Below, piece after piece: positions 13,223 to 62,220 of a stretch of 64,000 bases of DNA. Positions within the stretch are counted from its first letter, which is position 1, and each line of letters opens with the position of its first letter. Source of the DNA: Bacteroidetes bacterium 2013_40CM_41_45 (GTDB taxonomy: Bacteria > Bacteroidota > Bacteroidia > AKYH767-A > 2013-40CM-41-45); the NCBI GenBank assembly GCA_002215675.1, contig NGFH01000003.1, positions 80,957 to 144,956 of the forward strand, written 5' to 3'. The notes under the pieces are model-generated. The model searched no databases, was not told the origin of the DNA, and was given only the letters and a program-made list of their open reading frames with translations. Both the position numbers and the translations under genes were made by a program.

Positions 13223-13486
13223 ATGAAATTGAATGGGCGTTTTTATATTGAAGATGAAAAAGACTCTTCAGGTTATTGGAATCTTGTTGACACAATAGAT
13301 GGTACATTAATCGGATTCAAAAAGAAAAGCGACGCAAAAGAATCCTTAACGTTTGCTAGACAATATGTTAAACGTCATGGTGATATTGATTTTTTATCAT
13401 TCCCTTATTCAATAGATACTCCCCTCCATTATGAATCATATAATGGGCGGGAACGAATCCAAATAGAGGACAAAATAAAATCATGA
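13223..13486 (+). CDS. hypothetical protein
   Basis: 87 aa. The RBS is GTGAGG. Confidence 0.5.
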   Translation: MKLNGRFYIEDEKDSSGYWNLVDTIDGTLIGFKKKSDAKESLTFARQYVKRHGDIDFLSFPYSIDTPLHYESYNGRERIQIEDKIKS

Positions 13487-14001
13487 ATGAAACACAAAAT
13501 AAAAATAATCTATTACAACTAAAAATAATTGAAGAGACTCATAGGTGGTATGAAGAGGCTTGCACAATATATAATCTTAATATGAATCTTGTATCTGATT
13601 TGAAAATTGATTTTAATCTAAAAAATTCTACCGCTGGCATTGCATATTCTATCCAAAACAAAATAGAGTATAATTTAATTCTTGCCTCTCAAAATGAAGA
13701 CGCTTTTATTAAGCGAACGATTCCCCATGAGGTCATGCATTTAGTAGCAAATAAAATTTACAAAAGGAATGTCGGCCATAAAAAAGAATGGGCGCAAGTT
13801 ATGACAAGACTCGGGTTAACTCCCTCGCGTTGCCATACTTACGAATTAAAAAATTTAAGCAGAAAATTTTATAAATATAATTGTGGATGTAATGCGCCTC
13901 ATGAGGTTGGAATCAATCTTCACAAAAAAATGCAAGCGGGCGACATGAGAAAATGTTCTATCTGCAAGGAATATCTAAATTTTGATTCTGCTATAGATTA
14001 G
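13483..14001 (+). CDS. SprT-like zinc metalloprotease
   Basis: HEVMH...GHKKEW (HExxH plus a downstream His) and a C-terminal CGC...CSIC zinc ribbon. Confidence 0.65.
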   Translation: MNETQNKNNLLQLKIIEETHRWYEEACTIYNLNMNLVSDLKIDFNLKNSTAGIAYSIQNKIEYNLILASQNEDAFIKRTIPHEVMHLVANKIYKRNVGHKKEWAQVMTRLGLTPSRCHTYELKNLSRKFYKYNCGCNAPHEVGINLHKKMQAGDMRKCSICKEYLNFDSAID

Positions 14002-15906: not shown

Positions 15907-15924
15907 TCAATGGGAGATTTTAAA

Positions 15925-16347
15925 ATGTCAAAAGTTACAGAATTTTGTATTGCAGAATGCGAACGCCAAAATGATTTAACTACTGAAGCGGTTGCTGGAA
16001 TGGTAGAAGCATGGTATTATGCAATGCCAATGAATGAGAACAATATTAACGAAGTTGTTATTGAAATAATCGCCCATATGATTAAGCCTGAAAATAATGC
16101 GAAGGGTTATAGAAATACACCCGTTATTTTTTCTAATGGCGAGTCTGGATTATCTTATTTAATCATTGGCCGCGCTATGGAAAATCTTATTGATAATATT
16201 CGCTATATGACGCCTCTTAATTTTTATAAAGAATTTGAATTGATACATCCATTTGAGGATGGTAATGGAAGAATCGGAGCAATCCTTTATAATGTATTGA
16301 CTGGTACAATGGGTGACCCTCAGATTCCACCAAATATATTTGATTAA
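15925..16347 (+). CDS. Fic/Doc family protein (HPFxDGNGR motif)
   Basis: HPFEDGNGRIGAILY matches the Fic core HxFx(D/E)GNGRxxR. 141 aa. RBS GGGAGA. Confidence 0.7.
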   Translation: MSKVTEFCIAECERQNDLTTEAVAGMVEAWYYAMPMNENNINEVVIEIIAHMIKPENNAKGYRNTPVIFSNGESGLSYLIIGRAMENLIDNIRYMTPLNFYKEFELIHPFEDGNGRIGAILYNVLTGTMGDPQIPPNIFD

Positions 16348-23947: not shown

Positions 23948-24631
23948 ATGATAAAAATTTATCGTGTGGGTGGTGCAGTAAGAGATTCTATTATGGGACT
24001 AAAATCAAAGGATATTGATTATTCTGTTGAAGCAGAATCTTTTGATGCTATGCGTGATTATATTGTTAGTATTGGCGGTCAGATATTTCTTGAAACTCCA
24101 AATTTTCTAACAATTCGTGCAAGAGTTGGTAGAGAATCGGCAGATTATGTTCTTGCACGTAAGGATAATGATTATAGTGATGGGCGCAGACCTGATTCCG
24201 TTGAACCCGGTACTCTCTATGATGACCTTGCAAGGCGTGATTTCACAATGAATGCTATCGCCATTGATTCTCAAGGATATTATATTGACCCTTTTTATGG
24301 AATCATAGATATAGGACAAAGGATTATCCGCTGTGTTGGAAAAGCAGAAGACCGTATTTCAGAAGATTGGCTTAGATTGCTTCGTGCCGCTAGATTTTCA
24401 ATCACCAAAGATATGAAAATTGATTCAACCATTACAAAATTTTTTGATGATAACTATGCAACTTCTCATCTAGCAAAATCTGTTTCTGAAGAAAGAATTC
24501 GTGAAGAAACTAGTAAAATGTTTCAAGCAGATACAAGAGTCTCAATTAAATTTTTTGGTCAATATCCTAAAATGTCATATGCTTGTTTTGGCGGTGGCAT
24601 TTGGTTAAAGCCAACAACTGAAGAGAGATAA
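23948..24631 (+). CDS. tRNA nucleotidyltransferase (CCA-adding enzyme / poly(A) polymerase head-domain family)
   Basis: GGAVRD...DIDY and RRDFTMNA motifs, typical of the class II CCA-adding head domain. Confidence 0.75.
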   Translation: MIKIYRVGGAVRDSIMGLKSKDIDYSVEAESFDAMRDYIVSIGGQIFLETPNFLTIRARVGRESADYVLARKDNDYSDGRRPDSVEPGTLYDDLARRDFTMNAIAIDSQGYYIDPFYGIIDIGQRIIRCVGKAEDRISEDWLRLLRAARFSITKDMKIDSTITKFFDDNYATSHLAKSVSEERIREETSKMFQADTRVSIKFFGQYPKMSYACFGGGIWLKPTTEER

Positions 24632-32664: not shown

Positions 32665-32807
32665 TAATTCAGAACGTGAAGATATATTAACCTTGAATAA
32701 AATATATTTAGGATATTTTGATGACCAAAATATTGATTCAATTTATATTGATGAATGTGATAATGGTATTCGTGGATACTTTAGTTTAAATAGATTTGAG
32801 GTGATTG

Positions 32808-33254
32808 ATGAAGAATAAAATACTTGTTTTATCAAGAAAAGTTGCTGAAGGTTATGATTGGTATGGTAGAGATATTGCAATCATATCTGTAACAGACCCA
32901 AATCAACCATCGGCTAAATTAAATTATTTTGAGGATAAGATTCTAAGACTTCAATTTCATGATGTAGACAAAGATATGAAAATGTGGACTCCAAATGGAA
33001 CTGTACGCATATTTACAATAAATGATAGTCAAGTAAAAGATATTGTTCAATTTGTTGATAAATATTTTTATAATGTTGATGAATTTGTTATTCACTGTGA
33101 AGCTGGAATATCGAGGAGTGCAGGAATAGCCGCCGCCATTGCAAAATATATTTATCTTGATGATACAGAATATTTCAAGAAGTATATTCCAAATAGAACT
33201 GTTCACCGTTTAGTATTGAATGAATTTTATAAGCTAAAAGAAACGATAATTTAG
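32808..33254 (+). CDS. Cys-based phosphatase of the PTP/DSP superfamily (CX5R P-loop)
   Basis: HCEAGISRSAGIAAAIAKY. Confidence 0.65.
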   Translation: MKNKILVLSRKVAEGYDWYGRDIAIISVTDPNQPSAKLNYFEDKILRLQFHDVDKDMKMWTPNGTVRIFTINDSQVKDIVQFVDKYFYNVDEFVIHCEAGISRSAGIAAAIAKYIYLDDTEYFKKYIPNRTVHRLVLNEFYKLKETII

Positions 33255-33264
33255 GAGAATGAAA

Positions 33265-34356
33265 ATGACCGATAGGCCAATGGCAACACTTAGAACTGTA
33301 AATAATAAATATCCTATTCCTGAAAAGGATAGGATTGAATTGATTCAGGTAGATGGATGGCAAGTAATTTCAAAAAAGGATGAATTTGAAATTGGTGATA
33401 TGTGCATATATGCTGAACCAGATTCTATTTTTCCTGAAATACCAGATTTTGAATTTCTTCGTCCTAAAAAATTTCGTATTAAAACTATGAAGATGGCTGG
33501 AGTTATTAGTCAAGGCATTGTTTTTCCATTATCAATTCTCCCCCTCCGCAACAAGAAATATGTTCTTGGCGAAGATGTTACGGAATTGATTGGTATCACA
33601 AAATATAAAAGTGAACCAGATAATTCAATTCCACAACCAACATGGATGAAAAATCCAATTGTTAAAAAACTTTTGAGATATAAAATTTTTAGAACAATTC
33701 TTTTGCCAAATAAAGAATATAAAGGATTTCCAAAATTCATTTCTAAAACAGATGAAGAAAATGTTCAAAATTTACCATATTTATTTTCTGAAGAATTTAA
33801 AAACGTTCCATTTGCTGTTCGTGAAAAAATAGAAGGTCAATCAGGAACGTGGTTTCTTCAAAGAAAAAAGAATTGGTTTGGAAAAGAAATTTTTGAATTT
33901 GGAGTTTGTTCAAGAAATATTCGTAAATTCAAAAAAGATAATTCATCATTTTGGAAAGTTGCCATAAAATATAATATTGAAAATATTCTAAAAGAATTAA
34001 TTGGTGATAAAAATGAATGGATTGCCATTCAGGGTGAATGTGTTGGCCCCGGCATTCAAGGCAATATCTATAAATTAAATGATGTTGATGTTTATATGTT
34101 TAATTATATAGAACCAAAAGGAAAAATGGATGATAAAATAGCTGAAGTTGTTATGAATTCATATAGCATTAGATGGTGTCCTTTAATTGATAATGAATAT
34201 TATCTTCCATCAACAGCAAATGATGTTCTTGAATATTCAAATGGTACATCGCTTTTATATAATACTGACCGTGAAGGATTGGTATTTCGCAATTACGAAA
34301 AAAATATTAGCTTCAAAGCACGTTCACCTAAATATTTATTAAAATCTGATACATAG
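33265..34356 (+). CDS. ATP-dependent RNA-ligase-like nucleotidyltransferase
   Basis: KIEGQSG (motif I-like K-x-E/D-G), EGLVFRN (motif IV-like) and FKARSPKYLLK (motif V-like). Confidence 0.5.
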   Translation: MTDRPMATLRTVNNKYPIPEKDRIELIQVDGWQVISKKDEFEIGDMCIYAEPDSIFPEIPDFEFLRPKKFRIKTMKMAGVISQGIVFPLSILPLRNKKYVLGEDVTELIGITKYKSEPDNSIPQPTWMKNPIVKKLLRYKIFRTILLPNKEYKGFPKFISKTDEENVQNLPYLFSEEFKNVPFAVREKIEGQSGTWFLQRKKNWFGKEIFEFGVCSRNIRKFKKDNSSFWKVAIKYNIENILKELIGDKNEWIAIQGECVGPGIQGNIYKLNDVDVYMFNYIEPKGKMDDKIAEVVMNSYSIRWCPLIDNEYYLPSTANDVLEYSNGTSLLYNTDREGLVFRNYEKNISFKARSPKYLLKSDT

Positions 34357-34365: not shown

Positions 34366-34713
34366 ATGGAAACTTTTATAATTGATAGAAATACTTGGTT
34401 ACGAGGACAATTCAATAGCATGTTGTTTCGTGCTAAAGATGGGAAAATGTGTTGTCTTGGGCAAATTGGATTACAATGTGGCTTAAATGAAAAAGATATG
34501 TCTAATAAAATAAGTCCTACTAATGCAATAGAACATTTAATAGAATTTCATAATGTCAATCCATTTTTTATATCATTGATGAATAAAAATTATTTTCTTA
34601 GCATGAAAGCAATGGGAATAAATGATAATATATATACCAATGATAAATATAAAGAAATACAATTAAAATCATTATTTGCAAAATATGATGTTGAATTAAA
34701 ATTTATAAATTAA
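34366..34713 (+). CDS. hypothetical protein
   Basis: 115 aa. Confidence 0.45.
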   Translation: METFIIDRNTWLRGQFNSMLFRAKDGKMCCLGQIGLQCGLNEKDMSNKISPTNAIEHLIEFHNVNPFFISLMNKNYFLSMKAMGINDNIYTNDKYKEIQLKSLFAKYDVELKFIN

Positions 34714-34729
34714 AAAGGAAAAATAAAAA

Positions 34730-35173
34730 ATGAATAAGAAAAATAATACAAATTTTGTACAAGTTGAAGGAAATGTAAATAAGGCAATTCAAGGAAATAT
34801 TACGACTACAACTACTTGGCCTCCTGTTACTGGTCAAGTTTGGCCTATGGATATTTCAGGAATTAGTAATCAACCAGAAGTTGCAGACCAAATTAAACAA
34901 GTTATTATAAATGATAGGACTGTAATTATCAACTGGAAAGATGGAACAAAAAGTCGTTCTACCTGTGATGTTGAAGATATTTTTAATCCAGAATTAGGAT
35001 TTGCAATTGCTGTAATTAAAAAATTAATTGGTAAAAAACGTTATACTGGTTTTGTTGAAAAAGCTTTGCGCCAACAAAAAAATCGTATTAGAAAAATTGG
35101 TCGTTCTGCATTAAAATCGCTTGCTAATGATACATCAGAAGAATTTAATATAACAATATCCCTTCTTCCATAG
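34730..35173 (+). CDS. hypothetical protein
   Basis: 147 aa. Confidence 0.5.
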   Translation: MNKKNNTNFVQVEGNVNKAIQGNITTTTTWPPVTGQVWPMDISGISNQPEVADQIKQVIINDRTVIINWKDGTKSRSTCDVEDIFNPELGFAIAVIKKLIGKKRYTGFVEKALRQQKNRIRKIGRSALKSLANDTSEEFNITISLLP

Positions 35174-35191
35174 CAACTATCAGGAAAATAA

Positions 35192-35668
35192 ATGACAATC
35201 ATTCATAAATCAGGAAATATTTTAGATGCAACAGAAAACATAATTATTCACCAAGTAAATTGTGAAGGTGTAATGGGTGCGGGTTTAGCAAAACAATTAA
35301 GAAATAAATGGCCTATAATATATACAGAATATAAAAAATTATGTGATGAAAATCGTATAAAATTTATGTTGCTCGGAAAAGTTCAATATATTAAAGTTGA
35401 TGAAAAAAAATATGTTGCAAATATGTTTTCACAATTAGGAATTGGAACTGACAAAATTCAAACAATTTATTCTGATATGAAAAAAGGTCTTAAACGTATT
35501 GAACAAGGAGCAAGATTTGATGGTCTTTCAATAGCTCTCCCTTTTCAACTAGGATGTAATCGTGCTGGTGGAGATTGGGATGGCGTAGTATATCCAATGA
35601 TTCAAGAAATTTTTAATATATCAGATGTGGATGTTGCAATTTATACATATGAATCAGAGGTCAAATGA
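35192..35668 (+). CDS. macro domain protein (ADP-ribose binding/processing)
   Basis: IIHQVNCEGVMGAGLAKQL matches the macro-domain N-terminal motif (V/I-N-x-x-N...GGG(V/L)xxA). Confidence 0.65.
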   Translation: MTIIHKSGNILDATENIIIHQVNCEGVMGAGLAKQLRNKWPIIYTEYKKLCDENRIKFMLLGKVQYIKVDEKKYVANMFSQLGIGTDKIQTIYSDMKKGLKRIEQGARFDGLSIALPFQLGCNRAGGDWDGVVYPMIQEIFNISDVDVAIYTYESEVK

Positions 35669-35928
35669 CAATTGCTATAACAAATAAACAACATACATAT
35701 ATAAAAATAGTTCAATTTATGCAAGCAGACTCTAACAAAGAAATGTATAATAAATTAAATCTATTAATTGATATAATAAAAGTAGACGCAGATTTATCTC
35801 CATCGTCTGCCAGCCTTGATGTTTTTGGATTTAATTTATTTATATTCTCTTATGAACAATATATTAAATTGTGTGAGGAATTGGATAATGACCCAAGATA
35901 TTATTCAAAAAGTCACATTAGAAATTGA
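35665..35928 (+). CDS. hypothetical protein
   Basis: 87 aa. Confidence 0.4.
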   Translation: MTIAITNKQHTYIKIVQFMQADSNKEMYNKLNLLIDIIKVDADLSPSSASLDVFGFNLFIFSYEQYIKLCEELDNDPRYYSKSHIRN

Positions 35929-36085
35929 AAATCTGAAATCTAAAAATAAAAAATATTGGTATGATTTCAATGTAAATAAACAAGATTCTAAAAAATTAAA
36001 AGAATATTTTGAAAACATTGGATATAAAGTTGAATTGAAAGAATGTCGGGCTTGTAAATTATTTGATATTATTATTGAATTTTAG
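35888..36085 (+). CDS. hypothetical protein
   Basis: RBS GAGGAA. Start re-set to MTQDII. Confidence 0.35.
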   Translation: MTQDIIQKVTLEIENLKSKNKKYWYDFNVNKQDSKKLKEYFENIGYKVELKECRACKLFDIIIEF

Positions 36086-42772: not shown

Positions 42773-42803
42773 GTATATATCAATCTAAGAAAGGATGATA
42801 AAC

Positions 42804-43643
42804 ATGTTTCCAGAATATCAAGAATTTTTTAATTCAAAATCAGATAAAAGTATTCACACTCTACGCTCATATCATCAAAACATTGATTCTTTTATTAGTG
42901 CTTTGAAAATTAAGAAAGTAAAAGATTTGGAAAAAGTATCTGCTGGTACATTGCGTACTTATCGTGATTCTTTGAAAATTTCAAATGCTTCAAAAAATAC
43001 TTGGACTCGTGTTTTATCATCTTTCTTTAGTTTTATGAATGAACAAGAATATATTGATTTCAATGTTTTTGATAAGGTAAAATATCTTTCTCTTACTGAA
43101 AAAGAAAAAACAATCAATATGCCAACACAAGATGAAATTAAAATGATTATTGAATCTTGTGAAAACAAAACTACAAAATTGATGTTGAATATTATGTCAC
43201 GTATTGCTTTACGTCGTGATGAATTATCAAAAATCCAAATTAAAGATATTGACGCTGATGGTCGTATTATTATTCATGGAAAAGGAAGCAAAATTAGAAT
43301 GGTGAAACTTCCTTTGGATATTTTTGAAACAATTAAGGCTCATATTAAAAATAAACGTGTAAAGTCAGAATATCTATTTAGCTATGATGGTCATAAAATT
43401 ACGGGCGATGCAATTTATATCCGTATTAATGGATTTATTGAAACCTTGAATATTTCTGATGAACGTAAAAAGGCAATTGCACATCCTCATGCTCTACGTC
43501 ATCGTGCATTGACCACCACTTACAACGTAACTAAAGACCCATATGCTGTAAAGAATTTGGCTGGTCATTCCAATTTAGCTATTGGCGAAAGATATATTCA
43601 TGCTGAATCAAATATTTATGATGATGTTACGGAGAATTTGTAG
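42804..43643 (+). CDS. tyrosine site-specific recombinase (integrase/XerC-D family)
   Basis: Box motifs ALRRDEL (Arg I), HALRHRALT (H-x-x-R) and LAGHSNLAIGERYIH (catalytic Tyr). Confidence 0.75.
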   Translation: MFPEYQEFFNSKSDKSIHTLRSYHQNIDSFISALKIKKVKDLEKVSAGTLRTYRDSLKISNASKNTWTRVLSSFFSFMNEQEYIDFNVFDKVKYLSLTEKEKTINMPTQDEIKMIIESCENKTTKLMLNIMSRIALRRDELSKIQIKDIDADGRIIIHGKGSKIRMVKLPLDIFETIKAHIKNKRVKSEYLFSYDGHKITGDAIYIRINGFIETLNISDERKKAIAHPHALRHRALTTTYNVTKDPYAVKNLAGHSNLAIGERYIHAESNIYDDVTENL

Positions 43644-46935: not shown

Positions 46936-48030
46936 ATGGAACTAGAATTACTTGCTTTTATCAAACATAATCCTGATTGGAAAACAATTCTTCAGGAAAA
47001 ACCATATGGAATAACTATCAAAGAAAAAAATGGTTATATTCTCTTTATGTACAGTCAAATTGAAAGTGATTTCAAATTATCTTTAGTACGTGAATGTCGT
47101 GGTTTGATTTTACGTGAAAAAGATTTAAAACCTGTTTGTATGGCTTTCAAAAAATTCGGAAATTATGGTGAAAGTTATGTTCCCGATATTGACTGGTCAA
47201 ATGTTAAAGTACAAGAAAAAGCTGACGGTTCGATAATTAAATTGTGGTTTGATAATAATGAATGGCATGTTTCTACAAATGGAACAATTGATGCATCTGA
47301 TGCTTCACTATCAGAAAATTCAATGTTAATAGATGGATGTATTTATAAAAATTATTCTGAATTATTTCATAGTGTTTTTCCACAAAATTTATATTATGAT
47401 GTTTTGAATATTGATTTATGCTATATCTTTGAATTAGTTTCAAATTTTAATAGAGTTGTGATTCCTTATAATGAAACAGCATTGTACCATATTGGCACTA
47501 GAAATATGAAAACCCTAGAAGAATTAGACATTGACATTGGAATTAAAAAACCAAAATTATATAATTTAACTTCATTAGAAGAAATTTTAGAAATAGTAAA
47601 AAAATTACCATTCAATGATGAAGGATATGTTATTTTAGACAAATTTTGGAATAGATTAAAAATAAAATCATTAGCATATATTTCTGCTCATCATTTAAAA
47701 AATAATGGTGTTGTTACAAAGAATCGTGTTCTTGATATGATTAGAACCGGCGAACAATCTGAGTTTCTTAATTATTATCCAGAATATCAAGAAATTTTTA
47801 ATGAAGTCCAAAATAAAATTAATAAACTTTTGGTATCCATTGAACATGATTATATTCTTTTCAAAAACAGAAAATTTGAAGATAGAAAAGAAATGGCATT
47901 ATGGGTAAATCAAACTGTTTGTCCGTCTGCTATATATAGTTTATATGATAAAAAAGTATCAGATGTAAATAGTTTTGTTTTCGGATTAACTAATGAGCGT
48001 TTATTGAAAATGATTGGAGAAAAAGAATGA
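46936..48030 (+). CDS. ATP-dependent RNA ligase, T4 Rnl1-like
   Basis: Motif I VQEKADGS (K at ~aa 95), motif IV DEGYVILDK, motif V RLKIKSLAY. 364 aa. Confidence 0.65.
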   Translation: MELELLAFIKHNPDWKTILQEKPYGITIKEKNGYILFMYSQIESDFKLSLVRECRGLILREKDLKPVCMAFKKFGNYGESYVPDIDWSNVKVQEKADGSIIKLWFDNNEWHVSTNGTIDASDASLSENSMLIDGCIYKNYSELFHSVFPQNLYYDVLNIDLCYIFELVSNFNRVVIPYNETALYHIGTRNMKTLEELDIDIGIKKPKLYNLTSLEEILEIVKKLPFNDEGYVILDKFWNRLKIKSLAYISAHHLKNNGVVTKNRVLDMIRTGEQSEFLNYYPEYQEIFNEVQNKINKLLVSIEHDYILFKNRKFEDRKEMALWVNQTVCPSAIYSLYDKKVSDVNSFVFGLTNERLLKMIGEKE

Positions 48031-48941
48031 CTGAACTAAGATTTCTTGTTGGAATTCCTGCAAGTGGAAAATCTACTTTTGCAAAAGAGATTTTAAAAGA
48101 TAATAATTATGTTCTTGTTTCATCGGATTCATATCGTGAAAAAATTTATGGTTCGGAAGAAATTCAAGGAAATAAAAATGAACTTTTTGAAATTATCAAT
48201 AAAGATATTATTCAATATCTTATGGATGGTAAATCTGTAATTTTTGATGCGACAAATATAGATTTAAAAAAGAGAATGGAATTAATAAAAAAAATAAATT
48301 CAAAAGTTTCAGATATTTATATAACAGCACAAGTTGTTGCAACCCAATATAAAATCTGCTTGGAAAACAACAGGAAACGGACACGTTTCGTCCCCGAATT
48401 CGTTATTAAGCGCATGTATGAAAATTTTACTTTTCCTCAAAATTTTGAAGGTATTCACAATGTCTTTATTCGGTATGATTATGATAAATATGATTATCGT
48501 CAAGAATGGCTTGAAGAACTAATGGATGATTTCAACCAAGATAATCCCCATCATAGTTCTACGCTTGGTCAGCACACACTTAAGGTTTTTGAAAATATTT
48601 TGACTGTTGCTCCCGATAATCATAGATTGCAATTGGCCGCTAAATTTCACGATATAGGAAAATTATATACAAAGACTTATAAAGATTCAAAAGGAAATCA
48701 GAAAGATTTTGCCAGTTATTATAATCATGAGCAAGTTTCGACATATGAATCTATGTTTTATCTTAAAGAAAAAAATATTCAAAATTTTGATATGTTCTAT
48801 ATTCTTGGATTGATTCAATTTCATATGAGGTTATATGGAATCAATTCTGATAAAAGCAGAGATAAACTTATAAATCTCATTGGTAGACAAATGTATGAAG
48901 ATTTAATTTTATTAAATGATGCAGATAAAAATGGAAAATAA
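48027..48941 (+). CDS. P-loop polynucleotide kinase fused to HD-domain phosphohydrolase (RNA end-healing enzyme)
   Basis: Walker A GIPASGKST. HD motifs HHSSTLGQH...KFHDIGK. 4-nt overlap with the ligase gene. Confidence 0.65.
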   Translation: MTELRFLVGIPASGKSTFAKEILKDNNYVLVSSDSYREKIYGSEEIQGNKNELFEIINKDIIQYLMDGKSVIFDATNIDLKKRMELIKKINSKVSDIYITAQVVATQYKICLENNRKRTRFVPEFVIKRMYENFTFPQNFEGIHNVFIRYDYDKYDYRQEWLEELMDDFNQDNPHHSSTLGQHTLKVFENILTVAPDNHRLQLAAKFHDIGKLYTKTYKDSKGNQKDFASYYNHEQVSTYESMFYLKEKNIQNFDMFYILGLIQFHMRLYGINSDKSRDKLINLIGRQMYEDLILLNDADKNGK

Positions 48942-50061
48942 TATAGAAAAAATAATAAAATTTTTAAATATAAAAAATTATATTTTCATTGATAATTACC
49001 ATAAAAATAATCAAATAAGAGTTATTATCCAAGACAAACTTGGCTATAAATATGATGTTCAATTTGGAAATTTAAGTGTTCAAAAGCCAAAAATTGTCCA
49101 TAAATTCAATCCCTTTAGTTTAGAAAATATAGGAATATGGATAAAGATAAATAAAAAGAATTTTTTATTATTGAAAAATAATATTTATCTAAATGCCAAT
49201 GAAAAGTTAAGATTTAAATGTTTGGATAATAAATGTAAAGAAATTTTTTTCGCAAGTTGGCATTCAATTTTTAGTGGTAGAGGATGCACATTTTGTTCTG
49301 GTTTTGAAGTTGGCAGACATAATAATTTAGAATATTTATTTCCTGAAATTGCAAAAGAATGGGATAAATCAAATTTTATAAAAGCATTTGAAATTACCTG
49401 TGGTTCAACAGAAAATATTTTATGGAAATGTAAAAAATGTGGTTATAAGTGGAATGCTTCTCCGAATCAAAGAACTTATTATAAAACGGGTTGTCCTTCT
49501 TGTTCTGGATTAATTGTTTCGGATAGTAATAGATTGTCTATTTTATTTCCAGAAATATCAAAGGAATGGCATCCAATAAAAAATGGGAATTTGACTCCAA
49601 ATGATATTAGTTATGGAAGCAATAAGAAATTTTGGTGGCTATGCCCAAAAGGACATGAATATTATTCTGCTGTTAATAATAGAATAAATGGAAGGAATTG
49701 TAAAAAATGCAAAATTAAAAAAGGTGAAAAAGAAATTATTAAAATTCTTGATATTTATAATGTAAAATATAAATTTCAATGTAATGATTTTAAAGATTGC
49801 AGAGACAAAATTGTTTTATATTTTGATTTTTATTTACCTGACTATAATATTTGTATTGAATATCAGGGAATTCAACATTATGAACCAATTGATTTTGCTG
49901 GTCGCGGTAAGAAATGGGCAAAAGAAGAATTTAAGAAAAATAAAAGAAGAGATAAAATCAAGATAAAATATTGTCAGAAAAATAATATTAAATTGATTAT
50001 TATACCTTATTGGAATTTTGATGAAATTGAAAATATTTTAAAAAGGAATTTGAAAATATGA
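48931..50061 (+). CDS. Zn-ribbon-repeat (DUF4379-like) protein with C-terminal nuclease-like module
   Basis: Repeats LFPEIAKEW...CPSCSG and LFPEISKEWHP...W.CPKGHEY. C-terminus is FDFYLPDYNICIEYQGIQHYEP. The start is uncertain (48916 or 48931). Confidence 0.6.
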   Translation: MENNIEKIIKFLNIKNYIFIDNYHKNNQIRVIIQDKLGYKYDVQFGNLSVQKPKIVHKFNPFSLENIGIWIKINKKNFLLLKNNIYLNANEKLRFKCLDNKCKEIFFASWHSIFSGRGCTFCSGFEVGRHNNLEYLFPEIAKEWDKSNFIKAFEITCGSTENILWKCKKCGYKWNASPNQRTYYKTGCPSCSGLIVSDSNRLSILFPEISKEWHPIKNGNLTPNDISYGSNKKFWWLCPKGHEYYSAVNNRINGRNCKKCKIKKGEKEIIKILDIYNVKYKFQCNDFKDCRDKIVLYFDFYLPDYNICIEYQGIQHYEPIDFAGRGKKWAKEEFKKNKRRDKIKIKYCQKNNIKLIIIPYWNFDEIENILKRNLKI

Positions 50062-50222
50062 ATGTTTATCATGTCAAAATAAATATAATCATATTAATAA
50101 TGTGTACAATTCTAGTCTTTTTTGTTGACAATCTATATCATAAACATTATTTAGATTGTGCATATAACTTAATGGGTGTTTTGGGATTACTTATAATGTA
50201 TAATCTAACAAAAGGAAAATAA

Positions 50223-50447
50223 ATGGAGGTAGCAATGAATAGAGAAACTGTTAAATTTCACTTGGAAAATATTAGAAATAATAAAAGTAAAGATGGTCAC
50301 ATTCAAGATTTAAAATTAGAGATTAGTTCATTGCGAATTATGGCCTTTAAATATAAAGGAAGTGGTTTGGCTAAGGTTGCAGAAAAAAGAGCAAACGATA
50401 TTGAAAAGGAATTAACATTAGCTATTTTGGACGCAAAAAGAAAATGA
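50223..50447 (+). CDS. hypothetical protein
   Basis: RBS AAAGGAAAA. Confidence 0.45.
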   Translation: MEVAMNRETVKFHLENIRNNKSKDGHIQDLKLEISSLRIMAFKYKGSGLAKVAEKRANDIEKELTLAILDAKRK

Positions 50448-50965
50448 ATTATAATCCAAAAAATCAAGGTGGTCTTGATAGTTTATGTTCAGTATATAGT
50501 ATTATCAATGCTTATGGAATAACGATGAATGCCACCGATAATGAACAACAAAAATTATTTAATGATATTATTGCATATCTTTCTAAAAAAAGAATTTTGA
50601 AAGACGTAATTATTGGTGGTGTTTATCATAAGCATATGGTAATGATGTTGGAAGATGTTGTTGGAGATAGAATACCAGTAAAAAATCTAATATGGAAAAG
50701 TTTTCCAACACCAACAAAAAGAATTTTCTGGAATTCAATTGTAGAACATTTATCAAATGAAAATAATGCTGTAATTTTAAGTATGGGTGGTAGGCGTGAC
50801 CATCTATCATCAGCATATCAAGCAACAGATAAATCAATAAAATTATTGGATTCTAATGGAATGAAATCAATTAGATATAAAGATTCAACTACTGATACAA
50901 GTGTTCACACAATAAAAAAATTCATGCTTTATCCAAGTCAATGTTGGTTTTTATCTAAGGAATAA
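50444..50965 (+). CDS. hypothetical protein with candidate Cys...His peptidase-like arrangement (DSLCSVYS ... GGVYHKH)
   Basis: 173 aa. The functional call is speculative. Confidence 0.4.
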   Translation: MNYNPKNQGGLDSLCSVYSIINAYGITMNATDNEQQKLFNDIIAYLSKKRILKDVIIGGVYHKHMVMMLEDVVGDRIPVKNLIWKSFPTPTKRIFWNSIVEHLSNENNAVILSMGGRRDHLSSAYQATDKSIKLLDSNGMKSIRYKDSTTDTSVHTIKKFMLYPSQCWFLSKE

Positions 50966-50966
50966 A

Positions 50967-51857
50967 ATGAAAAATTTAAAAATAATTTTTGAAACTAAAG
51001 CAGGTTCACATCTTTATGGAACAAACACTATATCTAGCGATATGGATTATCGTGGTGTTGGCGTTGTTCCAATTAAAGATATGCTTGACCCCTTCCAAGA
51101 ATTCAATCAATTTGAAGATAATGAATCTGATGATAGAATTATTTATGGATTGAAAAAATTTATGAAATTGGCAAGCGATATGAACCCCAATGTTTGTGAA
51201 TTGTTATATGCAAACGAAAATTCTATTATTAAATTAACAAAACAAGGTAAAATTCTTTTAGATAATAGAAACTTATTTCTATCACAACTTGCACGAAAAA
51301 CATTTTTTGGATATGCAGTTGCACAATTGAAAAGAATTGAATTACATAAGAATTATCTTTTAAATCCTCCAAAAAATAAACCTAATCGTGAAGATTATGG
51401 TTTGCCAGCTATGCCAAATTTTGGATTGGAAAAAATTGTCAACATGATTCATTCTCCACAAGAAACTATTGCACCTGAATGGCGTGAATATGCATTAAAA
51501 GAAAAATCATATCGTGATGCTTCAGACAATTATCAAAAATATGAACAGTGGAAAAATAATAGAAATCCAAAACGTGCATTACTAGAAGAAAAATGGGGGT
51601 ATGATTTAAAGCATTCTAATCATTTATATAGACTTTTGACTGAAGGAAGAGAATTATTAGAAACAGGAAATATTGTATTTCCTTTAAGAAATGTTGATAA
51701 ATTAAAATTTATTTTAAATGGTGGTATGACTTACAATGATTTGATGGAAGAAGTAAATGAATTAAATAAACTTTTTGAAAATTGTAAATCTAATTTACCA
51801 AATAAACCAAATATCAATAAATTAAAAGAATTATATTATAAAATTCTAGGAATATAA
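50967..51857 (+). CDS. predicted nucleotidyltransferase (Pol-beta superfamily, GS-x10-DMD)
   Basis: AGSHLYGTNTISSDMDYRGVGV. 296 aa. Confidence 0.55.
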   Translation: MKNLKIIFETKAGSHLYGTNTISSDMDYRGVGVVPIKDMLDPFQEFNQFEDNESDDRIIYGLKKFMKLASDMNPNVCELLYANENSIIKLTKQGKILLDNRNLFLSQLARKTFFGYAVAQLKRIELHKNYLLNPPKNKPNREDYGLPAMPNFGLEKIVNMIHSPQETIAPEWREYALKEKSYRDASDNYQKYEQWKNNRNPKRALLEEKWGYDLKHSNHLYRLLTEGRELLETGNIVFPLRNVDKLKFILNGGMTYNDLMEEVNELNKLFENCKSNLPNKPNINKLKELYYKILGI

Positions 51858-55669: not shown

Positions 55670-56119
55670 ATGGACATTGGAAGTGGTAAAGGATTTCCAG
55701 CATCAAATTTATCTAATTTTTCACCACACCCTTTTGAAATTGATGGTGTTATGTGTAATAGCATGGAGGGATTTCTTCAATCTTTAAAATTTAAAGATGT
55801 TGCCATGCAAGAATATGTTTGCACATTAGTTGGATTAAAGGCAAAATTTAAAGGCAAAGATAAAAAATGGTGGAAGACTCAAACTCTCTGGTGGAGAGGT
55901 GTTGAAATTGATAGGCATTCAAATGAATATCAATTACTTTTAGATAGAGCATATAATGAATTGTCCAAAAATGAATCTTTCAAAAGAGCATTGTTGGCAA
56001 CAGGAAATTCATCTTTGAAACATTCCATTGGAAAAAATGATGCTCATAAAACCATTTTGACTGTGAATGAATTTTGCGGTAGATTATTAAAAATCAGAGA
56101 AGGATTGAAAAATGAATGA
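55670..56119 (+). CDS. NADAR (YbiA/DUF1768) domain protein
   Basis: SNFSPHPFEIDGVMCNSMEGFLQSLKF matches the NADAR core (SNF...PF..DG......E..fQ..KF). Confidence 0.65.
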   Translation: MDIGSGKGFPASNLSNFSPHPFEIDGVMCNSMEGFLQSLKFKDVAMQEYVCTLVGLKAKFKGKDKKWWKTQTLWWRGVEIDRHSNEYQLLLDRAYNELSKNESFKRALLATGNSSLKHSIGKNDAHKTILTVNEFCGRLLKIREGLKNE

Positions 56120-57872: not shown

Positions 57873-58214
57873 ATGGCTATTTATGTAAAAAATGAAAAGA
57901 AAGATGGAGACAAATCTTTTCCGGGTAGAATGGTATATATCGGAAGACCATCAATACTTGGAAATCCATATTCTCATTTGTCAAATACTTTGGCTGAATT
58001 CAAGGTAAAAAATAGAAAAGAAGCCATTGACAAATATAAGGAAATGTTTTATAATAGGATATTGTACGATGTTGAATTTAGAACGGCAATTGATTCTATT
58101 GTAAAAGATGCTTTTATTGGTCATAATATTTATTTGTTCTGCTGGTGTAAACCATTTGCTTGTCATGGTGATATTATAAAAGAATATATTGAAAGTAAAT
58201 TGAGGAATAAATGA
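57873..58214 (+). CDS. hypothetical protein (GNPY motif, DUF4326-like)
   Basis: 113 aa. Confidence 0.4.
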   Translation: MAIYVKNEKKDGDKSFPGRMVYIGRPSILGNPYSHLSNTLAEFKVKNRKEAIDKYKEMFYNRILYDVEFRTAIDSIVKDAFIGHNIYLFCWCKPFACHGDIIKEYIESKLRNK

Positions 58215-60424: not shown

Positions 60425-60506
60425 GAGAATATGATGGAATGCAGACATGCCAACCTTAGAAGTTGGTGCTAGAAATAGCATACTGGTTCAAATCCAGTTA
60501 TTCTCA
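60425..60506 (+). tRNA. tRNA-Leu(TAG), type II
   Basis: Hand fold gives acceptor GAGAATA/TATTCTC, anticodon stem CCAAC/GTTGG with loop CTTAGAA, a long variable arm, and T-arm ACTGG-TTCAAAT-CCAGT. Confidence 0.7.
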
Positions 60507-60510
60507 CTAT

Positions 60511-60585
60511 GCTGATATGAAGGGAATTGGCATACCTATTTCGCTTAAAACGAAATGTTTACAGGTTCGACTCCTGTTATCAGCA
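60511..60585 (+). tRNA. tRNA with anticodon TAA (reads UUA; Leu by anticodon) but short variable loop (type I-like)
   Basis: Acceptor GCTGATA/TATCAGC. Anticodon stem TTTCG/CGAAA with loop CTTAAAA. T-arm ACAGG-TTCGACT-CCTGT. 75 nt. Confidence 0.5.
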
Positions 60586-60599
60586 CAAACAATCACTAT

Positions 60600-60685
60600 G
60601 TTCATGTGGCTGGAATTTGGTAGACGCGGCAGTTTCAAAAACTGTTATCTGAAAAGATGTGTGAGTTCGATTCTCTCCATGAACA
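60600..60685 (+). tRNA. tRNA-Leu(CAA), type II
   Basis: Acceptor GTTCATG/CATGAAC. Anticodon loop TTCAAAA. Variable arm ATCT-GAAA-AGAT. 86 nt. Confidence 0.6.
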
Positions 60686-60689
60686 CTAT

Positions 60690-60761
60690 GTCCCATTATT
60701 TCAATGGATAGAATAAAACGCTACGAACGTTTTGGTGCGAGTTCGACTCTTGCATGGGACT
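60690..60761 (+). tRNA. tRNA-Arg(ACG)
   Basis: Acceptor GTCCCAT/ATGGGAC. Anticodon stem AAACG/CGTTT with loop CTACGAA. T-arm GCGAG-TTCGACT-CTTGC. Confidence 0.65.
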
Positions 60762-60787
60762 CAAAAATTAAATGAAAAGGATGTTTT

Positions 60788-61102
60788 ATGAATAAATTTT
60801 GGTGTATATTTAGAATATTTTTTAAGAATACACTAGGAGAACTTTATGCTATTATGATAGGTGTGCCATTAGTTATAATAGTTTTTTTATTGATTTCTCA
60901 TTGGATAAGTAATTATGGAATTTATATAAAATCTTTTCTTTATAATATTCTTTATCAAATTTGTTTATTTTTATATTTATATAAAGATTTTATTATTTAT
61001 TTTCTATTTTCAATTTTCAATTTATTTTATATTTATGGATTTTATTCTGCATTGAAATATCAATGGAATAAAGCCAAAAAAGAATACAGTGGTATATTAT
61101 GA
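60788..61102 (+). CDS. small membrane protein
   Basis: 104 aa, hydrophobic. Lies between tRNA groups. Confidence 0.4.
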   Translation: MNKFWCIFRIFFKNTLGELYAIMIGVPLVIIVFLLISHWISNYGIYIKSFLYNILYQICLFLYLYKDFIIYFLFSIFNLFYIYGFYSALKYQWNKAKKEYSGIL

Positions 61103-61455
61103 GATTTCAAATTGCACAAAAAGGTGAAAAAAGAGATGTGGAAGGATTTCTTTGGCTTCCAAGAGGCTTTGATGGCAATGAAATAAGATGGTTAGAACAT
61201 GCTAAATGGAGAGAATATTATGATGGTATTAATTGGATATTTTACTATTGGAATGATTAAACGCAGTTAATAAAGGAAATATTTTATTAATAAAAAAATA
61301 GAGTTGGGCATATTCGTATGGATTGTAGTAAGTTTATTGTATTTTATAATTCTAGGATTTACTTTACGTCATATAATGTTACTATCATTTGGCTTTATTT
61401 ATGGGATTTTAAAAATAATTTCATCAATTGATGAAACGTGAATTTTATCAATAAT

Positions 61456-61536
61456 GAGTTTGTAGCCTATTGGGATGGCATCTGCCTCTTAAGCAGACAG
61501 AGTAATCTAGAACAGGTTCGATTCCTGTCAGACTCA
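61456..61536 (+). tRNA. atypical tRNA, anticodon CTT (Lys by anticodon) with 3-bp D-stem and 14-nt variable region
   Basis: Acceptor GAGTTTG/CAGACTC (one G-U pair). Anticodon stem TCTGC/GCAGA with loop CTCTTAA. T-arm ACAGG-TTCGATT-CCTGT. Confidence 0.45.
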
Positions 61537-61549
61537 CAGAAATAAAAAT

Positions 61550-61635
61550 GGAAGAATGCATTCATGGGAATAACTAGTCTTGAAAACTAGGCTACCGAGT
61601 AGCCCTCGATAACGGTTCGATTCCGTATCCTTCCT
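61550..61635 (+). tRNA. tRNA-Ser(TGA), type II (boundaries approximate)
   Basis: Anticodon stem CTAGT/ACTAG with loop CTTGAAA. Variable arm GCTAC-CGA-GTAGC. T-loop TTCGATT. Confidence 0.5.
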
Positions 61636-61672
61636 CTAGTAAGAAAAATTCATTTTCAAAAGGATATTAAAA

Positions 61673-61804
61673 ATGTCGCCAAAGAATGAAGTTACTAAAA
61701 AATATTTGATTACAAGAGATGAAGAAGTTTTCACTGATTGGCTTTTCAAAAGTCAGGTGAGCGATTATATTCGCAGAGGATATATCGTTGAAGAAATAAA
61801 GTAA
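61673..61804 (+). CDS. small hypothetical protein (43 aa) between tRNAs
   Basis: Manual translation gives MSPKNEVTKKYLITRDEEVF... Confidence 0.3.
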   Translation: MSPKNEVTKKYLITRDEEVFTDWLFKSQVSDYIRRGYIVEEIK

Positions 61805-61810
61805 TGAATT

Positions 61811-61900
61811 GGAATCATGACAGAGTAGCAATGTGTATGTTTGCTAAACATAAGCCACCAGTAACATGATGCGTAGGTGCAAATCCTACTGATTCCGCCA
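61811..61900 (+). tRNA. tRNA-Ser(GCT), type II, with encoded 3' CCA
   Basis: Acceptor GGAATCA/TGATTCC. Anticodon stem TATGT/ACATA with loop TTGCTAA. T-arm GTAGG-TGCAAAT-CCTAC. CCA at 61898-61900. Confidence 0.55.
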
Positions 61901-61903
61901 AAT

Positions 61904-61974
61904 GACACCTATTCCTACCGGGTGGGGAATTGTCTGCAAAACAATTAATAGAGATTCGACTTCTCTAGGTGTCT
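61904..61974 (+). tRNA. tRNA-Cys(GCA)
   Basis: Acceptor GACACCT/AGGTGTC. Anticodon stem ATTGT/ACAAT with loop CTGCAAA. T-arm AGAGA-TTCGACT-TCTCT. Confidence 0.65.
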
Positions 61975-62005
61975 CTTTCAGCATTTGTTGAAACAGGAGC
62001 AAATA

Positions 62006-62143: not shown

Positions 62144-62147
62144 TTAT

Positions 62148-62220
62148 GTGTTTGTAGTGTAGTTAGTCTGCACGTTTGCCTGAAGAGCAGAAAGTGCTAG
62201 TGCAATTCTAGCCGGACACA
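62148..62220 (+). tRNA. tRNA-Phe(GAA)
   Basis: Acceptor GTGTTTG/CGGACAC (two G-U pairs). D-stem GTGT/GCAC. Anticodon loop CTGAAGA. T-arm GCTAG-TGCAATT-CTAGC. Confidence 0.6.

Follow-up and report, generated by a model that had tools for sequence, protein, structure and literature searches.

The 64,000-nucleotide stretch of DNA analyzed here (the window) comes from a phage and carries a stand-alone macrodomain gene whose product is probably an orphan antitoxin, namely a one-domain ADP-ribosylglycohydrolase, akin to the N-terminal half of DarG2, that would counter DarT2. This assignment draws on sequence, on a structural model and on analogy with characterized relatives, from which ADP-ribose binding, thymidine-DNA substrate specificity and a counter-defence role are predicted. 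A preliminary description of this DNA had proposed a phage-encoded, compact, DarG-like macrodomain that processes ADP-ribose and is accompanied by a NADAR gene; fold and family placement support that proposal, and the activity is expected from them. The gene and the element immediately upstream of it are as follows.

35192..35668, + strand: stand-alone macrodomain gene, 158 aa, ATG start; ALC1/TARG1-like class (DarG/SCO6735-type), putative AdfM-type anti-DarT2 ADP-ribosylglycohydrolase
35182..35185, + strand: AGGA Shine-Dalgarno-like element, 6 nt 5' of the ATG, read from the sequence

The open reading frame at 35192..35668 is clearly a real gene. An identical copy of its product is called on nine metagenome contigs (JGI, NCBI and ENA), and the protein has 9,239 relatives at E<=1e-3 and 2,600 at E<=1e-10, counted as 50%-identity clusters, with the nearest real relative ~50% identical. 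Two entries that appeared to be relatives at 82-100% identity (P0002 and P0003) were rejected because they are this gene itself, mis-called or frameshifted, rather than independent homologues. The macro-domain N-terminal motif that had been read in this compact protein is present, as the exact string IIHQVNCEGVMGAGLAKQL occurs in the 158-aa product of the plus-strand frame. A scan of the 31-40 kb interval for sigma-70 promoters returned 72 sites against 60.7 +/- 8.3 in shuffled sequence and thus found no enrichment, and no plus-strand terminators were found in a scan of the same interval, which is compatible with co-transcription and otherwise uninformative.

By sequence and by its modelled fold, the 158-aa protein is a macrodomain closest to DarG, SCO6735/BT1257 and TARG1. 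The AlphaFold2 model (pLDDT 92.4, pTM 0.88) has the macro fold on which the reading in the preliminary description depended, with alpha/beta/alpha layers around a central mixed beta-sheet. The best Foldseek matches to the PDB were DarG (Mtb and Taq), BT1257, SCO6735 and TARG1, with E values of 1e-10 to 1e-12 and TM scores of 0.74-0.87 (0.78-0.87 for DarG, BT1257 and SCO6735), and members of the ALC1/TARG1-like class occupied ranks 1-6 and 9. The search gave 182 matches at E<=1e-3, and the best 50 of these 182 all contain a macrodomain with the exception of one designed serine hydrolase. Structure matches to phage macro proteins in BFVD also confirm the macro fold. Sequence comparison by phmmer to the PDB recovered much the same proteins, with matches to 5m3i (Mtb DarG, 1.8e-13), 2fg1 (BT1257, 2e-10), 5e3b (SCO6735, 2.3e-9) and 5m31 (Taq DarG, 8.6e-8).

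Family models place the protein in the same way. It matches phrog_335 at 1.2e-35, and this is also the best match of the two AdfM proteins T4 Tk.4 and PhiKZ gp104; Bacillus/Geobacillus phage homologues fall in phrog_335 as well. The NCBIfam model antitoxin_DarG is matched at 7e-22 over positions 3-150 of 338, which is the macro half only (78 bits against a cut-off of 250), and the PADLOC DarG model at 6e-24 over positions 2-146 of 329. In bits against the PADLOC model, the protein (83) falls between T4 Tk.4 (36) and PhiKZ gp104 (133), all three covering positions 2-146 of 329 only. The Pfam macro model PF01661, by which the preliminary description had proposed to check the domain, did give a match over profile positions 2-112 of 118, but at 15.2 bits (E=0.021) it lies below the gathering score of 22; the macro assignment holds instead by fold and by the PHROG, NCBIfam and PADLOC models. 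Most homologues have a precomputed PF01661 match, and we attribute the sub-threshold score to divergence of the subclass and not to absence of the fold. The alternative that the protein is not a macrodomain, suggested by the PF01661 score, was rejected on the fold and specific-model evidence.

The residues of the active site were located by aligning the protein with its relatives and with characterized macrodomains, and lie at the following positions.

35258..35260, + strand: Asn23 codon, equivalent to DarG N22, PhiKZ AdfM N23 and SCO6735 N27; invariant in 262/262 aligned relatives
35267..35284, + strand: loop 1, G26-V-M-G-A-G31, Gly-rich and conserved across macrodomains (column analyses and alignment)
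35432..35434, + strand: Gln81 codon, at the catalytic Lys position of DarG (K80) and TARG1 (K84) and equivalent to the essential Gln85 of SCO6735 (HMMER alignments to 5m3i, 5m31, 5e3b and 2fg1)
35552..35572, + strand: loop 2 (diphosphate-binding), G121-C-N-R-A-G-G127, with atypical N123-R124; the family consensus is G-C-G-L-A-G-G

The elements that bind ADP-ribose in macrodomains are kept, namely Asn23, loop 1 and loop 2 with its atypical N123-R124, and ADP-ribose binding itself is predicted on this basis. Mutation of the conserved Asn impairs DarG, SCO6735 and PhiKZ AdfM (PMC9411070, PMC13309987). Loop 1 is part of a string, GVMGAGLAK, common to PhiKZ AdfM and the 158-aa protein; Ala30 within this loop sits where DarG and SCO6735 (K34) have Lys, and the conserved Lys34 comes after it. 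The catalytic Lys of the DarG/TARG1 type is absent, and its position is occupied by a Gln of the SCO6735 type, held by an Asn and followed by x-Gly: Q81-L-G83 and N23 align with Q85-H-G87 and N27 of SCO6735. T4 Tk.4 also aligns with a Gln at position 81, and the 262 relatives have Gln in 205 cases, Glu in 55 and Lys in none, with Glu in 53 of the 120 nearest. In SCO6735, Gln85 is essential and is positioned by N27, and the Q85E mutant is inactive (PMC9411070). The presence of Glu81 in many close relatives, though Q85E inactivates SCO6735, suggests that the chemistry or the substrate of this clade may differ from that of SCO6735. With this protein, the Gln-type, lysine-independent branch of DarG-like macrodomains, whose mechanism is still unsettled, gains a divergent sequence.

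Loop 2 departs from the family consensus at two adjacent positions. Position 123 is Gly in 233/262 relatives and position 124 is Leu in 227/262; N123 aligns with G128 of SCO6735, where a G128E substitution reduces activity (PMC9411070), and the confidence of the model is lowest in this loop, with pLDDT falling to 78 for residues 121-130. These observations would fit a protein that, via its private N123-R124, has become a catalytically weakened or inactive ADP-ribose binder (a "reader" or sponge) or the product of a decaying gene. We regard this as highly unlikely, as the reading frame is uninterrupted and has the same sequence on several independent contigs, the other signature residues are all kept, and Asn and Arg, unlike Glu, are not charge-repulsive to the diphosphate. 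Loop 2 also varies in validated AdfMs, being GCANGG in PhiKZ, with Ala at this position, and the different loop GAGIGKG in T4 Tk.4, and N, D, A, S or C at position 123 and R at position 124 recur in ~10% of relatives. Given this variation, N123/R124 was rejected as proof of inactivation.

The DNA-contact lysines of SCO6735, K34 and K89, correspond to Ala30 and Gly85 in the 158-aa protein. A K89 mutant of SCO6735 lost its DNA activity and was improved on protein substrates, and the relatives TARG1 and SCO6735 also hydrolyse protein-linked mono-ADP-ribose (PMC9411070). Loss of both lysines could shift preference here too, in which case the protein would be a mono-ADP-ribosyl hydrolase that cleaves off the ADP-ribose attached to phage or host proteins through Glu/Asp (or other) linkages, acting against a host ART toxin or balancing a phage Alt/Mod-type transferase. 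We consider this reading unlikely. In PhiKZ AdfM the K34 position is likewise Ala, and that enzyme is nonetheless active on DNA (PMC13309987); the validated phage members of phrog_335 act against a DNA-modifying toxin; and no ADP-ribosyltransferase domain was detected in the 64-kb window. Together with N123/R124, the A30/G85 pair forms a set of natural variants that would be informative mutants.

Comparison with characterized systems points to a new and fairly divergent addition to a family already described, and its activity would be that of its relatives. DarG (DarG2; 5M3I, 5M31, 5M3E, 7OMU) is the best match among solved structures by both sequence and fold and shares the N-terminal VNC-x-GVMG-x-G-x-A. 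The 158-aa protein differs from it in having no C-terminal DarT-binding domain (the DarG models match over the first ~150 of 329-338 positions), in having no adjacent DarT, and in the replacement of Lys80 by Gln81. For these three reasons we class the protein as an orphan relative of the DarG enzymatic domain and not as a DarG antitoxin; with no domain for binding DarT, its action would be purely enzymatic. A toxin partner is missing at all the loci that were covered: no darT gene adjoins the macrodomain gene, is found among the window ORFs, or lies next to the relatives at five loci examined.

SCO6735 and BT1257 (5E3B, 2FG1) share with the protein the catalytic "ANM-x-x-Q-x-G" segment, in which Gln substitutes for Lys, the His-x-x-Asn motif near the N-terminus and the "GC-x-x-AGG-x-W" loop 2, with TM scores of 0.82-0.87. 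Identity to this subclass is 25-27%; loop 1 is the DarG-like GVMGAG and not GGWGKG, the two DNA-contact lysines are replaced as described above, and the "mobile loop" is ~3 residues shorter than that of SCO6735 and ~3 longer than that of DarG. SCO6735 is cellular and DNA-damage-regulated, whereas the 158-aa protein is from a phage. On DNA, SCO6735 hydrolyses thymidine-linked ADP-ribose with high activity, and it serves as an orphan antidote to DarT (PMC9411070). Human TARG1/OARD1 (4J5Q/R/S) belongs to the same ALC1-like macro class (TM 0.74-0.83), but identity is ~20% and the Lys84/Asp125 dyad is absent here, with Gln81 in place of the Lys and a different loop 2.

A parallel in other phages is AdfM. 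T4 Tk.4 and PhiKZ gp104 are likewise phage-encoded stand-alone macrodomains of ~155-162 aa that fall in phrog_335 and match the macro half of DarG. In addition to the conserved Asn, the 158-aa protein shares the GVMGAGLAK loop with PhiKZ gp104 and Gln at the catalytic position with T4 Tk.4. The proteins differ in overall sequence, with identity of 24-27% (pairwise BLASTP: 27%, E 3e-9 to PhiKZ gp104; 26%, E 3e-5 to T4 Tk.4); PhiKZ gp104 retains a DarG-type Lys78 where Gln81 is found here, and loop 2 reads GCNRAGG in place of the PhiKZ and T4 sequences given above. Also in contrast to PhiKZ, there is no sign here of a phage nucleus or PicA-dependent import. As a possible precedent, ICP1 AdfB was set aside: the paper credits its effect to direct interaction with DarT, and the passages covered do not describe a macrodomain enzyme (PMC11481870).

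On the anti-DarT2 reading, a host DarT2-type toxin would ADP-ribosylate thymidines in single-stranded phage DNA and so block replication. The phage macrodomain would bind the ADP-ribose in the cleft between its GVMGAG and GCNRAGG loops, with Asn23 and Gln81 positioning the distal ribose for water-mediated, lysine-independent chemistry as proposed for SCO6735. Hydrolysis of the base-ribose bond would then release ADP-ribose and restore the DNA. DarG, TARG1 and SCO6735 all reverse thymidine ADP-ribosylation by DarT (PMC9411070, PMC5179494), PhiKZ AdfM (gp104) erases the marks of DarT2 in vitro and shields its phage (PMC13309987), and a T4 tk.4 knockout is sensitive to DarTG2 (bioRxiv 10.1101/2025.11.20.689424). 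Three functions had been suggested for the gene in the preliminary description, and only the anti-DarT option finds evidence, in the DarG, SCO6735 and TARG1 relatives and in the shared PHROG of Tk.4 and gp104, from which such a role may be inferred. Several observations weigh against it: validated AdfMs have no more than the low identity noted above, a tightly packed RNA ligase/DUSP-like block would also fit an RNA-related role, PF01661 scores below threshold, A30/G85 replace K34/K89, N123 stands at the G128 position, and Glu81 is frequent among relatives.

The gene sits in a phage, as is evident from the gp30.3 gene, the array of tRNA genes and the many genes with PHROG matches in the 64-kb window. 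The neighbours of the macrodomain gene encode a DUSP-like phosphatase, an RNA ligase, four ORFs without a Pfam or PHROG match, a DEDDh exonuclease and an AAA ATPase. They include a co-directional block with gaps of <=18 nt that runs from the DUSP-like phosphatase (32805) through the RNA ligase with its PHA02142 OB domain (33259) and onward into the DEDDh exonuclease. Domain searches of the window ORFs bear out the earlier observation that RNA-repair genes are present, as a Rnl1-type ligase, a Pnkp-like kinase+HD protein, RlaP, a PolyA_pol-head protein and 11 tRNA genes are found elsewhere in the window.

This setting brings up two readings in which the substrate is RNA-related. The first is that of a nucleic-acid repair accessory, which would clear 5'/3'-phosphate-linked ADP-ribose caps from RNA or DNA ends, or would dephosphorylate ADP-ribose-1''-phosphate in the manner of Poa1p during phage tRNA/RNA repair. 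Macrodomains of the TARG1 class can free the ends of nucleic acids from phosphate-linked ADP-ribose, and both the co-directional block and the wider set of repair genes are consistent with such a role. Yeast Poa1p (6LFQ-6LFU) has the macro fold and is a good structural match (E 1e-10, TM ~0.76), and it shares the N-terminal motif; this likeness accounts for the "phosphatase" and "Appr-1-p processing" labels that relatives bear in PHROG and GenBank. The sequence match to Poa1p is weak and partial, however (phmmer 7.7e-5 over residues 3-64), and those to DarG and SCO6735 are far stronger. We consider a repair accessory unlikely. The ~150 window ORFs of at least 55 aa yielded no 2H phosphoesterase, ART or DarT, and no Tpt1/KptA (PTS_2-RNA), the enzyme from which Appr-1''-p and ADP-ribose caps arise. 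These 64 kb belong to a genome of at least 148 kb, so the absence of Tpt1/KptA holds for the window and is not proven for the genome. Healing and sealing of the T4 Pnkp/Rnl type is not known to generate a 2'-phosphate, and the validated phage members of phrog_335 oppose DarT2 and do not act in tRNA splicing.

The linkage to RNA ligase is also not conserved. Relatives' loci were examined in three phages (Geobacillus E3, PBS1 and SPbetaL8) and two bacterial genomes (a Niallia prophage and Brevibacillus), and the RNA-ligase neighbourhood was absent from all five. The homologue in the Niallia prophage (50% identical) instead follows a Y-family polymerase and YolD, genes of DNA-lesion tolerance, and lies near an anti-Pycsar gene. 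A "toxin-antitoxin-like protein" beside the Geobacillus E3 homologue was considered as a possible DarT and rejected, as it is an ORF6N-domain protein. In a megablast search of window positions 30-42 kb against 50,697 phage records there was no match, and thus no close sequenced relative in that collection.

The second RNA-related reading makes the macrodomain the de-ADP-ribosylating step of an RNA-repair module, co-transcribed with the upstream DUSP-like phosphatase and OB-fold RNA ligase. The macrodomain would take ADP-ribose off RNA, at ends or bases that an ADP-ribosyltransferase of the host aimed at RNA had modified, after which the ligase would reseal the RNA; the lost DNA-contact lysines, the private N123-R124 and the Gln/Glu active site would then reflect a different substrate. 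We hold this to be decidedly unlikely.

A YAcAr/SLOG match is also present in the phage window. Along with other nucleotide-related phage genes, and with the general capacity of macrodomains to bind ADP-ribose derivatives, it could be taken in favour of an anti-Thoeris enzyme or sponge that destroys ADP-ribose-derived immune signals (gcADPR, His-ADPR). This is extremely unlikely: no characterized relative in the sources covered breaks down or sequesters the signals of Thoeris, the nearest relatives act as glycohydrolases on nucleic acids or proteins, and a literature search, not aimed at Thoeris by name, found no link between phage macrodomains and Thoeris. Of the functions suggested earlier, then, the Appr-1''-p phosphatase keeps a structural match to Poa1p but loses ground with Tpt1/KptA missing from the window and the RNA-ligase linkage missing at the five loci, and anti-Thoeris activity is tied to this macrodomain class by no match or literature found. 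Taken together, the failure to find Tpt1/KptA, 2H phosphoesterase or ADP-ribosyltransferase in the window and the unconserved RNA-ligase linkage leave the Appr-1''-p and Thoeris readings with little support.

The AdfM-type reading gains a companion in a second predicted eraser, located ~20 kb downstream and not adjacent.

55670..56119, + strand: T4 gp30.3/AdfN-type NADAR gene, predicted eraser of DarT1 guanine-linked ADP-ribose

The NADAR gene reported at 55670 in the preliminary description is real. Its product matches PF08010 (Phage_30_3) at 9.2e-53 (178 bits against a cut-off of 36) over profile positions 1-138 of 138, while the match to NADAR is weak; it also matches phrog_652, and by tblastn its identity to gp30.3 of T4-like phages is 65-67% across 99% of the query. 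T4 gp30.3/AdfN counters DarTG1 only, and a truncated RB69 allele is inactive (PMC11825919). In the protein encoded here the Phage_30_3 domain is full-length and above threshold and the C-terminus is intact, and AdfN activity is predicted from these features. With a full-length AdfN homologue in the same window, the phage appears to carry both erasers, as T4 does, and we infer that the two genes are parts of one anti-DarT equipment. The NADAR protein would be specific for DarT1 guanine marks, and the phage would be covered, like T4, against both DarTG types.

Taken alone, the macrodomain gene comes as no surprise in a family as large as phrog_335 (thousands of clusters), whose phage function was established in 2025-2026. 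If our assignment is correct, an uncultivated AT-rich phage has both known classes of DNA ADP-ribose eraser, AdfM for thymidine and AdfN for guanine. The "double eraser" arrangement of T4 would then extend to a phage without a nucleotide match among the deposited phage genomes searched, which would suggest that DNA ADP-ribosylation of the DarTG type is a widespread selective pressure. TTTW is a motif of DarT2 enzymes and occurs ~82 times per kb here. TNTC, also a DarT2 motif (PMC13309987), occurs ~42 times per kb, and with a GC content of 28% the genome abounds in T-rich motifs of the kind reported for DarT2 enzymes.

The preliminary description had placed a macrodomain ORF in the window; its position and motif were confirmed exactly, and the gene and its flanking features are:

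35192..35668, forward strand: macrodomain gene, ATG start, 158 aa, containing IIHQVNCEGVMGAGLAKQL
6 nt before the macrodomain-gene start, forward strand: AGGA element, read in the sequence
32805..34356, forward strand: DUSP-like phosphatase and second RNA ligase (PHA02142 OB-fold domain), in the same packed block
34366..35173 and 35665..36085, forward strand: four small ORFs (115, 147, 87 and ~65-89 aa) flanking the macrodomain gene

Nine metagenome contigs (JGI, NCBI and ENA), up to 147.7 kb long, carry a predicted protein identical to this one amid the same neighboring genes, so the gene is real and belongs to an uncultivated phage. The window has a GC content of 28.3%, and a megablast search with the 12 kb around the gene returned no nucleotide match among 50,697 phage records. 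The gene belongs to a compact co-directional block in which ORFs overlap or stand at most 18 nt apart, in the order DUSP-like phosphatase, RNA ligase, two unknown ORFs, macrodomain gene, two small unknown ORFs, DEDDh exonuclease and AAA ATPase. The four small ORFs matched neither Pfam nor PHROG, and the one of 87 aa may be translationally coupled to the macrodomain gene, whose stop codon it overlaps by 4 nt (ATGA). The DUSP-like phosphatase at 32805 (weak DSPc, Tc-R-P and Rit1-DUSP matches) lies 4 nt upstream of the ligase, and an HNH endonuclease is found just upstream, at 32248.

The Pfam PF01661 search proposed to confirm the macrodomain did return a match, but a sub-threshold one (15.2 bits, gathering score 22). 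The protein matched phrog_335 (1.2e-35), NCBIfam antitoxin_DarG (7e-22) and PADLOC DarG (6e-24), profiles that are more specific than PF01661 and decisive for the macrodomain call. Among solved macrodomain structures, a PDB sequence search returned the Mtb DarG macrodomain (5m3i, 1.8e-13), BT1257 (2e-10), SCO6735 (2.3e-9) and Taq DarG (8.6e-8), with weaker matches to Poa1p and TARG1. An alignment of 80 sequences (A1) yielded an AlphaFold2 model with a pLDDT of 92.4 and a pTM of 0.88. Foldseek matched this model in the PDB to DarG, BT1257, SCO6735 and TARG1 (E 1e-10 to 1e-12, TM 0.74-0.87), with Poa1p and alphavirus macrodomains ranking next, and in a viral structure library to many phage macro proteins, among them a tk.4 protein. 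The possibility that structure prediction would show no macro fold thus falls away, and the protein is almost certainly a macrodomain of the DarG/SCO6735/TARG1 class (ALC1/TARG1-like).

DarG, TARG1 and SCO6735 all reverse DarT-catalyzed thymidine ADP-ribosylation of ssDNA (PMC9411070, PMC5179494), which the SCO6735 study regards as a unifying function of the class (PMC9411070). Judged by the antitoxin_DarG and PADLOC DarG profiles, the window protein lacks the C-terminal DarT-binding domain of DarG and is not a DarG; no DarT gene was found beside it or anywhere in the 64-kb window. Its relatives are likewise orphans in Geobacillus E3, PBS1, SPbetaL8 and an SPbeta-like prophage of Niallia circulans, as is a copy on a Brevibacillus chromosome. 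A "toxin-antitoxin-like" neighbor of the Geobacillus E3 homologue was considered as a DarT and rejected, being an ORF6N protein. The Niallia homologue (50% identical) directly follows a Y-family polymerase (IMS) and YolD, and its locus links such macrodomains to DNA-lesion tolerance and anti-defense islands; a Schlafen/AlbA_2 gene adjoins the homologue, and an anti-Pycsar Apyc1 gene is close by (L008 and L009, 4279..6462). The Brevibacillus homologue adjoins a MutS-domain gene. Since TARG1 and SCO6735 are dual-substrate enzymes, removal of mono-ADP-ribose from proteins is a possible alternative activity, though no ART was found in the window.

Stand-alone phage macrodomains are known anti-DarTG2 factors: PhiKZ gp104 and T4 Tk.4 are both named AdfM (PMC13309987; bioRxiv 10.1101/2025.11.20.689424). 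PhiKZ gp104 strips DarT2 marks in vitro and is required on DarTG2 hosts (PMC13309987), and knockout of tk.4 renders T4 DarTG2-sensitive (bioRxiv 10.1101/2025.11.20.689424). The best match of both is phrog_335, which is also that of the window protein and of its relatives from Bacillus/Geobacillus phages; by BLASTP the window protein is 27% identical to gp104 (E 3e-9) and 26% to Tk.4 (E 3e-5). On the PADLOC DarG model, all three align with the macro half alone, and the window protein (83 bits) falls between Tk.4 (36) and gp104 (133). ICP1 AdfB, by comparison, is reported to neutralize DarT by direct interaction and, in the part of that report drawn on here, is not described as a macrodomain enzyme (PMC11481870).

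Active-site columns (numbered from Met1) were counted across the 262 nearest relatives, with the nearest 120 as a narrower set. Asn23, invariant in every relative examined, corresponds to DarG N22, SCO6735 N27 and PhiKZ AdfM N23, where mutation impairs activity (PMC9411070, PMC13309987). The catalytic lysine of DarG (K80) and TARG1 (K84) is absent; that column holds Gln81 followed by x-Gly, as in SCO6735 (Q85-H-G87) and BT1257. Gln85 is indispensable in SCO6735, whose proposed mechanism is water-mediated and lysine-independent (PMC9411070). Tk.4 carries Gln as well ("NLYTQF" to "NMFSQL" in the window protein) whereas gp104 carries Lys, so both active-site types occur among validated phage enzymes. 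Position 81 is Q in 205 and E in 55 of the 262 relatives, and never K. Glu reaches 53/120 in the nearest set, and its carriers form a large subclade (P0007, P0050-P0120) of the closest relatives. As SCO6735 Q85E is inactive (PMC9411070) yet Glu-81 is common, the SCO6735 model does not fully explain the chemistry of the clade; from these alignments, the Glu-81 branch may use a different chemistry or substrate.

Loop 1 is DarG-like (GVMGAG), and the string GVMGAGLAK is common to PhiKZ AdfM; Ala30 stands where DarG and SCO6735 have Lys, with a conserved Lys34 after it. Loop 2 reads G-C-N123-R124-A-G-G, while relatives mostly have G at 123 (233/262) and L at 124 (227/262). N123 aligns with SCO6735 G128, where G128E is impaired (PMC9411070), and N123/R124 could mark an inactive ADP-ribose "reader". 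We consider this possible but unlikely and rejected these residues as a sign of inactivation: the loop also varies in validated AdfMs (PhiKZ GCANGG, with Ala there; T4 Tk.4 GAGIGKG), PBS1 has GCGRGGG, and N/D/A/S/C at 123 and R at 124 turn up in ~10% of relatives.

A second candidate eraser is encoded in the window:

55670..56119, forward strand: full-length T4 gp30.3 homologue (PF08010, 9e-53, whole profile)

The NADAR gene reported at 55670 is thus a full-length homologue, sharing 65-67% identity with gp30.3 of T4-like enterobacterial phages across 99% of its length. This identity is strikingly high given that window positions 30000-42000, around the macrodomain gene, had no nucleotide match in any of the deposited phages. 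T4 gp30.3 is AdfN, a NADAR enzyme that clears DarT1 guanine marks and is inactive on DarT2 marks (PMC11825919). Like T4, the window thus combines AdfN with an AdfM-type macrodomain, in support of the suggestion that this phage has the means to erase ADP-ribosyl marks. The original interpretation is partly borne out: of the three functions first offered for the macrodomain, anti-DarT activity is best supported, Appr-1''-p phosphatase activity is weakly supported and anti-Thoeris activity has no support. Anti-DarT2-type removal of thymidine-linked ADP-ribose is the most likely role of this putative AdfM-type protein, with moderate confidence: an orphan Gln-type DarG-like macrodomain would enzymatically strip the modification from phage ssDNA, with the AdfN NADAR working alongside.

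A role in RNA repair, by end de-ADP-ribosylation or as an Appr-1''-p phosphatase, was kept under consideration given the Poa1p fold match, the phosphatase and OB-domain ligase in the macrodomain block and these features:

46936..51857, forward strand: RNA-repair block (Rnl1-type ligase, kinase-HD, DUF4379, RlaP)
60425..63892, forward strand: array of 11 tRNA genes (Leu x3, Arg, Lys, Ser x2, Cys, Phe, Val, Glu)
23948..24631: PolyA_pol-head (CCA-adding-like) gene

However, a search of the window ORFs for Tpt1/KptA and 2H phosphoesterase found neither, the ligase neighborhood was not seen at the Geobacillus E3, PBS1, SPbetaL8, Niallia prophage or Brevibacillus loci, and the protein's sequence kinship is with DarG and SCO6735. 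Within the RNA-repair block, the Rnl1-type ligase at 46936 is followed at 48027 by a fusion of an AAA_33 kinase and an HD phosphohydrolase (Pnkp-like, except that HD replaces the usual phosphatase), at 48916 by a treble-clef zinc-finger protein (DUF4379) and at 50967 by the RlaP nucleotidyltransferase.

Other features of the window are:

42795..43643, forward strand: tyrosine recombinase/integrase (Phage_integrase and SAM-like N-terminal domain)
15910..16347, forward strand: 145-aa ORF with canonical Fic motif HPFEDGNGR and a Pfam Fic match
13483..14001, forward strand: 172-aa ORF with HEVMH
57873..58214, forward strand: DUF4326 protein, 2 kb downstream of the NADAR gene

The 172-aa ORF is probably the source of the SprT-like match from the batch scan, which also gave the Fic match and one ORF each for YAcAr (SLOG family), HicA toxin, DUF6891 and DEAD helicase. 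Near the integrase lie a DUF932 protein at 41660 and an N6-type methyltransferase at 40318; the surroundings otherwise look like those of a large phage with many genes for tRNA and RNA repair.
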